Position numbers and translations under genes: made by a program. From the sequence record PZ445448.1: DNA of 64,000 nt; one strand, given 5' to 3'. This DNA is from a phage. The notes under the pieces were generated by a model. That model saw nothing but the letters and a program-made list of their open reading frames with translations, did no database searches and was not told where the DNA came from. This document shows, piece after piece, positions 25,788 through 35,177 of the stretch. The first letter of the stretch is position 1, and the number at the start of each line of letters is the position of its first letter.

Positions 25788-25810
25788 TTTTTTAACTGAA
25801 TTATCAAGGG

Positions 25811-25836
25811 GCTTAGGCCCCTTTCTTTTTGTCTGC
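25811..25836 (+). terminator. rho-independent terminator ending plus-strand block
   Basis: aggggc tta gcccct then TTCTTTTT. Confidence 0.65.
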
Positions 25837-25839
25837 TCT

Positions 25840-28310
25840 TCCTCCTACCACAAACGGCCCAGCCTGGCAAGTGGAATAATTGACTAGCCATCAATCCCAC
25901 ACACTGTACAAATATACATGGAAAATAACTATTGCATAATTTTTCATTGTGTGGTAGCAGGTCCATTTTTACCCGTTTTCTCTCTCAAAATTGCACGTAA
26001 TGCCGCTATTGCACAAAATTTAACCTGATGCACATCTTCAATATCTTGTCAACAACTAAAAATCTTTATAAGTCATACACTTACACACTCACAAAAGCGT
26101 GTTCTACGTGAAAAATCGAGTATAACTATAGCCGCCAGATCTCAGAATTTACGTACGCTCACCATTCTATAGTCTGCTAAGTATTTATTCCAACCATGGA
26201 ATAACGGAATAGTCAATACCTGCATAAAATAATTATTCGTGTAAACTGCATAACATAAATCAGCTCAGGTGTCAACATTTTTCGTAAACAGTCCGAAATT
26301 GTCACGGTGAGTTATCATAAACAGAGAAATATTTAGTCGTCTAATGTTTACTGTACATTACTATACTGACTGGAATCATTAGATGACTAAGAGAAAGATA
26401 AGAAATAATTAACAATACAATTATTTTATCTGTAACAATAAGGCAACTATGCAAACGAATGGCATGGCGCGACGGAGTCGCGACATAATATAAAAGCAGT
26501 AACCATCACCCCCGTGATAGTTTGTCTGCAAACTATTAATCAGATCATAGTTGCCTTGTATTTAGTTAATCATGACATAACAAGCAAGGCAACTATAGAT
26601 CTTCTAATAGTTGCCCTGCTTTTATATTATGTCATAGAAACACCCGAAGGGGTGACCAAAGGTCACCTGGCATGGCCAGTGAAAGATTATTAACTTGTTA
26701 ATTGTTAACTTGCTAATTGTTTTCATGCAAACGAATGTCATGGCTTATCCTATCTGTGTAAACAGTCAAGGTGTAAACTATCCAGGCGTAAACAATCTAT
26801 ACGTGAACAGTGAAACATGAAATAATAACAGTCGTTATTGTGTCGAAAGTGTATAAGGTGTCATAGTATGTCAGACAAGTTTTTCTCCTCTTTGTCAAGT
26901 GCTGCATGAAAAATTTACAAGCTTGTATGGTAGCATTTTTGCTGCCCTGTTTACATTCAGTTGTGTATGTATAACCCTTGTTGTGTGGGCGTTTAGACGT
27001 CTAGACGGTTGGAAGTCCGCAGGTTAATATCTAATCTATTGGCTGCTAACTATATCCCACACAAATAGTAAGAAATATAATTGTTATGTGCGTAAACAGT
27101 AACTCATGTTATCAATCCCTGTATGTATCGCCAGTGGTGCGCATAATGGGTATTATGTTAAATTGCCCGTAATGATAACTATTCTCACAATGATAGGTAT
27201 TCTCATTCACTCCCACAAGATAGGTTGCAAATGTTGTGCCACTGTGTGAACGGCCTCACCTATTAATTTGCCTCACTGCCTCGATATTTGAGAATTGTTA
27301 TAAGAATGAGAAGTATTCCCATTTCGTCCGCCTGGCAGCACTCCAGTCGCTACCGCTCATGACAGGGCAGAACTAGACCCTCTTCAGATATTTCTGGCTG
27401 ACTCTTCAGGCCTGTGTGGGAAAAGCCAACCTCTCCGGCGGCGGGGAGGGGTTTGTCAGGAAAATTGCAGGTCAATTAAAAAATTTACGTGGTATATGAA
27501 GCGCTCTTCAGGTAAGGCATGTATTATGGGATGAAACCCTCTTCAGGCAATGATATTTGTGGGTGTGATATTTGCTGGAAAGCCAGATATGACGGGACTC
27601 CCGGCGGGGCAGGGGTAGTACAGACAGGGGAAATATGGAGGATGTAGTTGGGGGAGTTGATCAAACAGGTAGAGTATGGAATATGTTACAAGTATGTTAA
27701 ATATGGAGGGTGGATATCTGTAGGATTTATGTGTAAAATCAAAGACTTAAGTGGTGTTGTGGTATTTTCTATAAATAATTCAAGTTTAATAGGTAATATT
27801 TGTCTCTATCCGCTTTGTGTGGTAAACAAATTCAGATGGTGTTGGTTTACAAGTGTATACATAATATACAAATTAAAGATACAAGAAACCCCCCTCCCCC
27901 TTCGGCTACCATTCACCTTTTCCTCTGACTGGTACTTAAACACTTATTCAGACTCTTCAGGTTATCACCCATATATCATATGGCAGTGACTGGTGTCCTC
28001 CGGCCCCTCTTTCGTCACCCGTCCGCTTCGCCATGCTAATGCCATAGCCAATGGTTCGGTTGTTCACCCTGTTCACTCAGGTGTATCTCCATACCCCTTC
28101 AAACCGAAGAGAACAGAAAACCCGAATTACTCGGTAAAAGAAAAGAGAAGAACTTAATTTTATCAGGATAGGCAAGAATGTCAAGGCATGACTGCTCACT
28201 AAACAAGCAAACAGTCATGTGTGGGAGGTAAGTGATTGTGGTGGTAGGAAATTTAGTTGAAAGATGTGTTATAGGTGCTCCCAGCACTTTAGCCGGGTAG
28301 CTAATTGTGT
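25840..28310. repeat. 2.5-kb repeat-rich noncoding convergent intergenic region
   Basis: No convincing ORF; GGCAACTAT/ATAGTTGCC inverted repeats, GGTGACCaaaGGTCACC palindrome, GTAAAC clusters, CTCTTCAGG x5-6, G-rich motifs. Confidence 0.6.
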
Positions 28311-32705: not shown

Positions 32706-33064
32706 TACCGCACCTCCTCAATAACTTCCACATCTGAGCCCACCACAAATGCAAAAGGACAGGTTTCATGAAAGACATCCGGATCGCCGCCAAGCTTGCT
32801 AACAATCTCTCCACCACTAATAAACACAAGCTCACCGATATTCATCAGATTGCTGAAATAGTACCCATAATGATTAAAGAATGCAGCAGGGTCAGGTAGA
32901 CTAGTAGCCTCAAGCACTACATCAGTTGAGGTTACTTTCTTATCATAACCTCTCGCCTTTTGAGATGCAAGATCTGCAGAATCCTCAGGCGACCGGAGAT
33001 GCACAGGAATTGTTTCACCAATAAAGCGTACTTTCATATTATCACCCAACAACCATAGCTTCAA
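32705..33064 (-). CDS. small acidic protein, paralog family
   Basis: 119 aa; ...DVEVIEEVR ending. Confidence 0.45.
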   Translation of the reverse strand: MKLWLLGDNMKVRFIGETIPVHLRSPEDSADLASQKARGYDKKVTSTDVVLEATSLPDPAAFFNHYGYYFSNLMNIGELVFISGGEIVSKLGGDPDVFHETCPFAFVVGSDVEVIEEVR

Positions 33065-33305
33065 AAGGGGTCATGAACGAATAAACGGCATCATCATCTG
33101 CTTCAGGGAATGCTCCCAAAGACTTCATGTCTGAGCCCTTGACAAATACAAGGTTTTGATCAAAAGCTTCTTGAGGATCAATCCGATACATATTTCGTAG
33201 AATATCGCCTACCTCCTCATCAAGAGGTGAGTATGCTGTGCACGTTTTTCCGATCAAGCTTTGAGAATCAGGGTATCCACCTGAAGTTTTAAAATAAACA
33301 ATCAT
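33042..33305 (-). CDS. hypothetical protein
   Basis: 87-aa ORF. Confidence 0.45.
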   Translation of the reverse strand: MIVYFKTSGGYPDSQSLIGKTCTAYSPLDEEVGDILRNMYRIDPQEAFDQNLVFVKGSDMKSLGAFPEADDDAVYSFMTPFEAMVVG

Positions 33306-33396
33306 ATAGTATCACCTCTGGTAAGAGATTGGGATTCCTTTCCCACAAATAATTACAAACCTTCCTTATCGAGGAAGTATGCTAATCCAAGCAGGA

Positions 33397-33666
33397 TTAT
33401 TCCTCTACAATCTCATACACATCCGGAGTTACAATCAACTCTTCTCCGTTACCCGGTGCAACAAACACCACCATGCCTTCAGGTGTGTGCTTTTTAGCCA
33501 TCTCGATAACATCTTCTCGCAGAGCTGGCTCCATCAGATCAAAACCTTCACCCAGGGCATCACGAACCACCTTCATATAGTCAACTGGTTGTGCTTCGAC
33601 AATCATACCTTCAACCAGTCCACAGTTTTTGTCTGCCAGCTCAGTTTTGAATAATTTAATTTTCAT
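33397..33666 (-). CDS. small acidic protein, paralog family
   Basis: 89 aa; MKIKLFK...YEIVEE. Confidence 0.5.
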   Translation of the reverse strand: MKIKLFKTELADKNCGLVEGMIVEAQPVDYMKVVRDALGEGFDLMEPALREDVIEMAKKHTPEGMVVFVAPGNGEELIVTPDVYEIVEE

Positions 33667-33803
33667 TTAGAGGTCTCCTCAATTATTTGATATTAATAGC
33701 CGTAACCTAACACATTAACTACAACTGCGATTGCAAACATAATTTCAAAGCATGCAATCTCTACATTTGGAACTAATTTCTTGATCACACCCATTGTAGC
33801 ACC

Positions 33804-34121
33804 TCATTCTCTAAAGTCAATCTTTACTTTGCCTTTCCCCTTACCTTTCTTTCCACCGCATTTAGCCAGTTGACGTGCTGCAACATCTACCATACGGTCA
33901 GTTGCCTCGTAAGCATCACTGCCTTTAGCTTTGGCAATAACTTCTTTTCCAGAATTGTCAAAAATGAACGCCATAACTTCCTGGTGATCATTTTCAACTT
34001 TTACACTCACACGTGCATAGTTGGCAGAGGGATGCAAACGCTCCAGCTTAGACATTTTGTGGGAAATGAAAGACACCATACCTTCAGTGATTTCTACGTT
34101 GCCAGTGATTTCAATTTGCAT
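33804..34121 (-). CDS. ribosome hibernation promoting factor (HPF/RaiA)-like protein
   Basis: MQIEITGNVEITEGM...KLERL...VKVE...ARQLAK parallels E. coli HPF MQLNITGNNVEITEAL...KLEQY...LKVE...ARQLTK; minus promoter ~34168-34196. Confidence 0.7.
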   Translation of the reverse strand: MQIEITGNVEITEGMVSFISHKMSKLERLHPSANYARVSVKVENDHQEVMAFIFDNSGKEVIAKAKGSDAYEATDRMVDVAARQLAKCGGKKGKGKGKVKIDFRE

Positions 34122-34203
34122 AACGTGTTCCTTTTAAAGAAGAGGGAACCAAACCCTCTTTGAAAACAATGATACTAAATCTGAAGCGTTGTGTCAACAG
34201 TTT

Positions 34204-34494
34204 TTACAGATTGTTGTCGATAGTTTTTAAAATATCCACAGCAAGATCTGCCATTTTTCGAACATACTCTGCAAACTCAACAGGATCCTTGATCAAAGAA
34301 TTCACAGGGTCGTACCCTAGAGCGTTCAAAATGGCTGCAGCATCTACAACCTTCTCATCATTTGCGAAGATCTCTCCATCAAACTTGTAGGTCCATTTTG
34401 AGTCAATCTTGGCAGGGAATGATTGGTCAACGCTTGTTACACCATCCTTTTTAAACGCTCCGGTGTTATCAGTGTCTAGAACTAAATCCATCAT
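34204..34494 (-). CDS. hypothetical protein
   Basis: 96-aa ORF. Confidence 0.5.
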   Translation of the reverse strand: MMDLVLDTDNTGAFKKDGVTSVDQSFPAKIDSKWTYKFDGEIFANDEKVVDAAAILNALGYDPVNSLIKDPVEFAEYVRKMADLAVDILKTIDNNL

Positions 34495-34511
34495 GTTAGT
34501 ACCTCACCGTT

Positions 34512-34910
34512 TCAGTTTAGCTTTTCTTCAACAACCCCATAGCTCGGGACAGAGTCAAGAGCTTTCTGGTTTAAAAGTGGTGTAGCAGAATCTGCAAACG
34601 GTGTCCAAGTTTTTGTTCTGGCATTCCAGTAATGCTTCACTCTGGAATCTGGATGCACTATAACAAAAACTTTTTCACTTGTCAACACATTAATTTCTTC
34701 TACACCCTTGCTGATAATTTCTCCGTCATAGCCACCAGTCTGGTATCCTTCGTACCAGGTTCTTGCATATGCATAGCCAGCCTGCCAGCATGCAGCCTCC
34801 TCCGAGGTGGAGACTACGTAGAAGTCTTTCTCAAATTCTGGGATACGCCCTTGCTTTACGCTCCAAGCTCCGCGAATTTTCATTGTAACTTTGAACAGTT
34901 TATTTTTCAC
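34512..34910 (-). CDS. hypothetical protein, paralog of 32310..32705
   Basis: VIVHPDSRVKHYWNARTKTWTP matches VMRHPHSNIAYYWDVLNNEWTP. Confidence 0.5.
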   Translation of the reverse strand: MKNKLFKVTMKIRGAWSVKQGRIPEFEKDFYVVSTSEEAACWQAGYAYARTWYEGYQTGGYDGEIISKGVEEINVLTSEKVFVIVHPDSRVKHYWNARTKTWTPFADSATPLLNQKALDSVPSYGVVEEKLN

Positions 34911-34922
34911 AACGGTTACCCA

Positions 34923-35177
34923 TCACAGCTCTACAATCTCTGCATCTGACCCTGCCCCAAAGGCATAATAGGATTCTTCCCCGAAATAATATTCCGGTGC
35001 ACCAGCAGCGATCAGGTCTGATCCCAAGATAAACACCACGTTGTGGCCTACATAACTGTGATGTTGCCGCACAGGATCATCCCACGGCAACCCTTCAAAG
35101 TATACCGCAGGAACGACCTTTCCCTTCAGGAAGGATTGTCCCAAGTAGACGTTAGAATCAAGAATTTTAACCTTCAT
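34923..35177 (-). CDS. small acidic protein, paralog family
   Basis: MKVKILDSNVYLGQ...DLIAAGAPEYYF...AEIVEL. Confidence 0.5.
   Translation of the reverse strand: MKVKILDSNVYLGQSFLKGKVVPAVYFEGLPWDDPVRQHHSYVGHNVVFILGSDLIAAGAPEYYFGEESYYAFGAGSDAEIVEL

Follow-up and report, generated by a model that had tools for sequence, protein, structure and literature searches.

The 64,000-nucleotide stretch of phage DNA analyzed here (sequence record PZ445448.1; hereafter the window) carries on its minus strand an ATG-to-stop open reading frame of 105 codons, as read from the ORF list of the window and from the sequence itself, which encodes a member of the HPF/YfiA (Ribosomal_S30AE) family. Both the frame and the 105-residue sequence quoted in the initial annotation were confirmed. 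The gene lies within a long leftward block of small uncharacterized genes, downstream of nucleotide-metabolism and replication genes, and it is preceded by a candidate promoter, a stem-loop in the 5'-UTR and a Shine-Dalgarno-like element (Table 1).

Table 1. Coordinates of the HPF/YfiA-family gene, its parts and its upstream signals in the window
Feature	Coordinates	Strand	Basis or character
CDS, 105-aa HPF/YfiA-family (Ribosomal_S30AE) protein (stop codon included)	33804..34121	-	ORF, PF02482, TIGR00741, phrog_12469
S30AE core domain	33858..34121	-	AlphaFold2 and Foldseek
C-terminal tail, residues 89-105, GGKKGKGKGKVKIDFRE, plus stop codon	33804..33857	-	basic, predicted disordered
Shine-Dalgarno-like AAGGA, 7 nt before the ATG	34129..34133	-	read from sequence
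5'-UTR stem-loop AAGAGGG-TTTGGTT-CCCTCTT, 7 bp, about -9.9 kcal/mol	34140..34160	-	ViennaRNA
Candidate sigma-70-type promoter, TTGACA-17 nt-TATCAT	34169..34197	-	11/12 consensus

The protein matched the Pfam profile PF02482 (Ribosomal_S30AE, 'sigma 54 modulation protein / S30EA') with 48.3 bits (E 1.8e-12; gathering score, 23.7 bits) over profile positions 1-83 of 88, and it scored above the curated threshold of TIGR00741, the NCBIfam model of the HPF/YfiA family (45.9 bits vs a cut-off of 40.9). phrog_12469 was matched with an E of 2e-70. The best subfamily model was NF007780, which describes the E. coli-type short HPF (55.8 bits, below the equivalog cut-off of 125), and the YfiA/RaiA equivalog NF007654 gave 17.6 bits, which does not reach its cut-off of 158. 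When PDB sequences were searched with phmmer, the best matches were E. coli HPF (2rql, 4v8h and 6h4n; E 5.3e-12 to 2e-11; residues 1-89), with V. cholerae HPF also among them. The motif-for-motif alignment with E. coli HPF that had been proposed from the letters alone is thus far beyond chance. No second Pfam domain was detected in the protein, and the Ribosom_S30AE_C dimerization domain is absent. A long HPF of the type known from Firmicutes, Thermus and chloroplasts was ruled out by the length of 105 aa, the absence of this C-terminal domain and the disorder predicted after residue 90.

AlphaFold2, run on a shallow alignment with five phage sequences, gave a model whose block-mean pLDDT was 85-95 over residues 1-80 and 78 over residues 81-90. 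Its secondary structure (E2-7, H13-29, E33-42, E47-55, E60-67 and H70-89) follows the order E-H-E-E-E-H. Foldseek superposed the model on V. cholerae HPF (4hei) with an rmsd of 1.1 A and a target TM of 0.90-0.93, and on E. coli HPF in its free (2rql) and ribosome-bound (6h4n_x) forms with an rmsd of 1.2-1.5 A (1.2 A for 6h4n_x) at 42% identity. The top 35 PDB matches were all HPF, YfiA, pY or the related RafH/MPY; a weak match to T7 Gp1.2 (E 1.2e-3, TM 0.45) was dismissed as generic alpha/beta similarity. Taken together, the profile search and the structure prediction that the initial annotation had proposed as checks both came out in its favor, the one above the PF02482 and TIGR00741 thresholds and the other with an S30AE fold whose closest structures are HPFs, and the homology is fully supported by profile, sequence and fold: the protein is a phage-encoded member of the HPF/RaiA family.

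The Gly/Lys-rich tail described earlier is likewise real. It has a net charge of +5 and a pI of 10.3, and the pLDDT falls below 50 from residue 91 onward, so that it is predicted to be disordered. In the sister lineage described below (cluster P0004), the tail, YSKSKGIDKRTAKWDY, is of similar length and carries a net charge of +3, with a different sequence. A basic tail of 16-17 residues is therefore found in both phage lineages, its length and positive charge being kept and its sequence not.

Expression signals and neighboring genes

The initial annotation had assigned to the gene a minus-strand promoter of its own, and this holds as a consensus match. The -35 box is part of an extended element, AAACTGTTGACACA / CTGTTGACAC, which stands directly after the upstream stop codon and is conserved in the sister lineage (loci L002/L004), where the synonymous sites of the gene are saturated. 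Where 0.71 occurrences would be expected, the window has five copies of the motif CTGTTGACA (11167 (+), 29011 (-), 34200 (-), 2522 (+) and 63646 (-)), and at the first three of these sites it is followed by a good -10 box at 17 nt and then by a Shine-Dalgarno sequence and an ATG. The pattern suggests a family of strong sigma-70-type phage promoters read by the host RNA polymerase, and the genes behind such promoter-like sites may be transcribed early. The stem-loop in the leader, which is absent from the shorter leader of the sister-lineage locus L002, may serve as a stabilizer of the 5' end or as a weak terminator for the upstream gene. Another promoter-like sequence, TTGACT-16-TACAAT at 33820..33793, overlaps the 3' end of the HPF gene.

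None of the eight neighboring genes has a Pfam match, and there is consequently no operon logic to use. A tblastn search with an RMF sequence gave no match at E<=10 in the window, which covers about half of the phage genome, or in the comparison loci. Searches of the window for tRNA genes and Rfam families were negative. The HPF gene is directly followed by a 33-aa hydrophobic ORF, MGVIKKLVPNVEIACFEIMFAIAVVVNVLGYGY (33693-33794 (-)), which is listed as hypothetical in phages nomine and RudolfGeigy. The sister-lineage contigs have no call for it, and their gap here measures only 84 nt. In phage nomine and several other records, an 89-aa ORF two genes downstream of the HPF gene (33397..33666 (-)) bears the label 'sigma 54 modulation factor'. 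It was rejected as a second HPF, having neither a Pfam match nor similarity to the HPF gene; the label is probably annotation spill-over, and the ORF is kept as an 89-aa gene in the sister lineage.

Elsewhere in the window, about 2.5 kb (25790-28310) between convergent plus- and minus-strand blocks holds no annotated gene, tRNA or Rfam match, and its GC content drops to 0.34 around 26000-26600. An 11-nt motif, AAGGCAACTAT / ATAGTTGCC(T/C)TG, is present there four times in both orientations (26430-26630), beside a perfect 18-nt inverted repeat (26482-26499 / 26616-26633). These repeats look iteron-like and may mark an origin or a regulatory region.

Conservation of the protein in phages and of its ribosome-contact residues

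Positions 33000-35000 of the window match Escherichia phage nomine (MN850649) and PMBT16 with 100% identity. Of 118 phage records, which are nearly all rV5-like coliphages (Vequintavirus), all except one are 90-100% identical to this region. The gene is present with an intact ORF in the 118 records. It appears under the names 'sigma 54 modulation factor', 'ribosome hibernation factor', 'hpf' and 'RaiA', and the RefSeq product name 'RaiA' is a generic family label. The protein of phage rV5 (ABI79209, cluster P0001, ending in ...VKIDFGE) is also 105 aa long and differs from that of the window by one substitution, G104R (99% identity).

Several labels met in these records are at odds with the sequences. 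Records MT884008-MT884011 and OR062525/528/530 call the HPF gene 'ATP-dependent protease La type I', for which the sequence gives no support. Eighteen records (MG065644-MG065684), named 'Campylobacter phage ...', match rV5-like coliphage sequence, those listed being about 97-99% identical, and their host label looks doubtful. In the phage collection, E. coli HPF had a single match above 90%, AGRM01000002.1 (691 kb), which is a chromosomal contig of Salmonella enterica subsp. houtenae filed there; the gene matched is a bacterial hpf and does not belong to a phage.

A word-indexed homolog search with the single protein as query returned close phage relatives only. An exhaustive phmmer search of 1.84 billion representatives gave 22 proteins at E<=1e-3, one of which (P0006, a 1160-aa repeat protein) was judged spurious. 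The nearest of them was P0004 (~64-65% identity), and cellular proteins did not exceed about 45%, enterobacterial-type HPF being the closest. On phage contigs of up to 125 kb (about 137 kb for the longest of the cluster), the P0004 gene occupies the corresponding position, with the same small genes around it. Between the two lineages, pS is 0.78, which is saturated; the core has a pN of 0.22, giving a core pN/pS of about 0.28, and the tail has a pN of 0.46. Because of this saturation, pN and pS are given in place of dN/dS. The saturated pS and the low core pN between syntenic lineages indicate that the gene is old in this phage group and under long-term purifying selection. The S30AE domain was probably derived long ago from a gammaproteobacterial, most likely enterobacterial, hpf. 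The age of the gene in the group tempers the suggestion of Mizuno et al. that the phage HPF gene was transferred relatively recently (PMC6375957).

The contacts between HPF and the ribosome have been listed in a 2025 cryo-EM preprint on hibernating ribosomes of Gram-negative bacteria. According to this work, K26/Q29 touch 16S nucleotides 1496-1498, H55/E60 touch the uS9 C-terminus, T53/H62 touch m2G966, and a strictly conserved basic track on alpha-2 comprises K80, R83, K87, K89 and K91; in addition, the longer tail of YfiA heads toward the RMF site, and the short HPF tail does not clearly do so. We located these residues, in E. coli numbering, in an alignment of 19 sequences and in a second one of 140, from which 23 non-redundant cellular members were retained. 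The phmmer alignment confirmed residues 1-89 of the E. coli HPF sequence used; the comparisons further drew on its residues 90-95 and on complete YfiA and RMF sequences.

Most contact residues are kept in the phage protein. It retains K23, K26, a family-typical R at position 29, R83, Q84, K87 and K91, together with the family-invariant D69, Y71 and D75, and E60 is kept in the window's protein only, being V in P0004. Two of the five residues of the alpha-2 basic track are lost: K80 is V in the window and T in P0004 (K in 82% of the 23 non-redundant cellular members), and K89 is G and S, respectively (K/R in 81%). Other changes are H55 to F, M70 to A (M/L in 99% of the family) and I74 to T (aliphatic in 98%), the last two belonging to a change from DMYAAID to DAYEATD that is common to both phage lineages. 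Since they are also present in P0004, the loss of K80/K89 and the DAYEATD motif are conserved features of the clade and not noise.

Possible action on host ribosomes

The presence of an HPF gene in these phages is correct but already known, having been annotated in GenBank since the deposit of rV5 and published in 2019. Mizuno et al. (2019, Nat Commun 10:752, PMC6375957) listed rV5 (ABI79209, 105 aa), FV3, FFH2, JES-2013 and typing phage 14 as HPF-encoding phages, and Mathieu et al. (2020) repeated the annotation for five more rV5-like phages. The former authors used pBAD24 to express the rV5 gene in E. coli and purified the ribosomes at high-stringency salt. By mass spectrometry, no peptides of the phage HPF were detected in the 70S or 100S fractions, whereas peptides including VKIDFGE were present in the crude extract, and the 100S levels did not discernibly change (PMC6375957). 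The result was called inconclusive, with growth phase, a genuine loss of binding or stripping by salt offered as reasons; the authors speculated that a viral HPF might compete with the cellular factor and prevent dimer formation, and proposed that it might counter translation stalling imposed by the host (PMC6375957). We found no later functional study of a phage HPF in the literature searched. The initial annotation had suggested that the phage may modulate host ribosomes, shutting them down or protecting them. The homology underlying this suggestion stands, whereas the modulation itself is plausible rather than proven. In the single published test, the 99%-identical rV5 protein was absent from high-salt 70S and 100S fractions and had no effect on 100S levels (PMC6375957). 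That annotation would have been abandoned if neither a significant profile hit nor ribosome binding were found; the hit is significant, and absence from ribosomes was reported once, in this high-salt test of the rV5 protein (PMC6375957).

We tentatively favor a role like that of YfiA, although we stop short of calling it probable: the phage protein would bind weakly and in a salt-sensitive manner at the decoding site of the host 30S subunit and hold 70S ribosomes, possibly opposing dimerization, and would not promote 100S formation. The gene would probably be transcribed by the host RNA polymerase from its own sigma-70-type promoter, and the protein would bind vacant host 30S/70S ribosomes in the HPF/YfiA pocket at the A and P sites. 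Compared with the host factors, it would bind less tightly and be more sensitive to salt, because two of the five basic contacts on alpha-2 are lost and the polycationic, flexible tail may compensate for them only in part. Ribosomes would thereby be held and shielded as 70S monomers, in competition with the 100S dimerization driven by host HPF and RMF. The lost contacts fit weak, salt-sensitive binding, which in turn fits the published high-salt negative. Host HPF and YfiA are themselves reportedly stripped from ribosomes by high-salt washing, and the negative co-purification is for this reason weak evidence.

A YfiA-like outcome is favored by the YfiA-like length of the protein, the course of the YfiA tail toward the RMF pocket and the absence of a 100S rise upon expression, the last of which argues against a plain promoter of 100S formation. 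We also counted in its support the family membership, with a core that scores far better on the HPF model than on the RaiA model (55.8 vs 17.6 bits), the confident superposition of this core on 6h4n_x, the retention of most contacts, the purifying selection, the basic tails and the finding of no RMF-like sequence in the loci searched. On the other side stand the failure to detect the rV5 protein in purified 70S and 100S ribosomes despite its presence in the extract, for which a genuine loss of binding is one of the explanations offered (PMC6375957), the changes at K80, K89 and the family-typical M70 and I74, and the failure to reach either the HPF (55.8 vs 125) or the RaiA (17.6 vs 158) equivalog cut-off. 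Moreover, the tail has no similarity to that of YfiA and its sequence is not conserved between the phage lineages, and plugging the A and P sites would block the translation of phage mRNAs too, so that the benefit to the phage is not obvious. A bolder variant, which we regard as rather unlikely, would avoid a lasting block: the protein may be an anti-hibernation factor or ribosome guard, an HPF-derived decoy whose weakened core contacts and polycationic tail would allow transient binding to idle ribosomes at the decoding site, keep off RMF/HPF-driven 100S formation or ribosome-directed defense effectors, and release the ribosomes for phage translation.

The core is closest to the short HPF by profile score, sequence and fold and retains most contact residues, which would also suit a true HPF equivalent that, together with host RMF, promotes 100S formation or otherwise shuts down host translation, throttling the host or banking ribosomes for a slow cycle. 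Vequintaviruses amplify unusually slowly according to the literature, and some throttling of translation would fit this behavior. We nevertheless consider such an equivalent improbable: the 100S levels did not discernibly respond to expression of the rV5 protein, which was not in the 100S fraction (PMC6375957), the equivalog cut-off of NF007780 was failed, the protein has a 10-residue extension at the end that points toward the RMF site in YfiA, and a block of the A and P sites would halt phage translation as well. The negative co-purification (PMC6375957) is what would be expected if the S30AE fold had been exapted, with no stable ribosome binding, for another target such as RNA or a host or defense protein, the polycationic tail being a generic nucleic-acid anchor. 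The isolation of the clade, for which nothing above about 45% identity exists in the 1.84 billion representatives except the phage sister, the clade-specific, conserved change from DMYAAID to DAYEATD with the loss of K80/K89 in both lineages, and the purifying selection, which shows that the protein does something, are all compatible with this. However, nothing would account for the persistence of R83, K87, K91, K23 and K26 (and E60 in the window lineage) in a protein that had given up contact with the ribosome, and the neighborhood, in which no gene has a Pfam match, suggests no alternative partner. The high-salt negative is again weakened by the reported stripping of the host factors, and we hold exaptation to be a minor prospect.

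It is still less likely, in our estimation, that the protein specifically serves to guard ribosomes against host defenses, occupying the decoding center of idle ribosomes and protecting the 16S rRNA from nucleases or abortive-infection effectors. Hibernation factors reportedly shield ribosomes from RNases. Hibernation accompanies some defense responses, RMF being induced during DRT2 immunity according to the literature, and the idea that a viral HPF counters host-imposed translation stalling (PMC6375957) points in the same direction. This support is entirely indirect, and no defense or anti-defense gene was identified beside the HPF gene. Finally, a gene taken up from a host as a passenger, and now decaying or functionless, might fail the strict equivalog cut-offs and have no known phenotype, as is the case here, but the ORF is intact in 118 records and syntenic in the sister lineage, the core pN/pS is about 0.28 at saturated synonymous sites, the -35 box of the promoter is conserved, and the protein is stably produced in E. 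coli (PMC6375957). The selection signal effectively refutes decay, which we consider very improbable.

Few viral genes have the ribosome itself as their target. Should the protein indeed bind ribosomes, it would reveal how a lytic phage handles the idle-ribosome pool of its host in nutrient-poor niches such as the gut, and if it acts against hibernation or as a guard, a slowly replicating gut coliphage could infect starved or stationary hosts. Our additions to what was known are modest, namely the loss of K80/K89, the basic tail that is kept in character and not in sequence, the syntenic sister at 64%, the strong purifying selection and the conserved candidate promoter, and they yield a sharper and more specific hypothesis on the role of phage HPF.

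Comparison with known hibernation factors

The closest known counterpart is the rV5 gene ABI79209, which is the same gene at the same genomic position in the same genus, and nothing of substance differs, although over 33000-35000 the window is identical to nomine and PMBT16 rather than to rV5. Other phage-borne HPF/YfiA members occur in Cronobacter phage GAP32 (AFC21633) and the Xanthomonas jumbo phage XaC1, whose protein is 34% identical to E. coli HPF; these S30AE genes of jumbo phages are separate acquisitions. A search with the phage protein as query did not pick up XaC1; it gave only the rV5-like records and one match below 60%.

Among cellular proteins, the short HPF of E. coli (YhbH) has the same fold and shares 40-44% identity with the phage protein (43-44% over 87 residues by tblastn), the N-terminal MQ(I/L)xITG and the KLE, VKVE, D-x-Y and RQL-x-K motifs, and most of the ribosome-contact residues. 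The phage protein differs from it in being 10 residues longer, with a Gly/Lys tail, in lacking K80 and K89, and in the substitutions H55F, M70A and I74T. With E. coli YfiA/RaiA (protein Y), it has in common the S30AE fold and an extension beyond the length of HPF (105 aa in the phage vs 113 aa in YfiA), whereas the identity is about 22% and the tail sequences are unrelated. The phage extension, at 17 residues, is basic and predicted to be disordered, and only its length resembles that of YfiA, whose tail ends in an acidic stretch, unlike the basic phage tail. The outcome may nonetheless be alike, in that the phage protein, as YfiA does, would be bound to 70S ribosomes and would not promote 100S formation.
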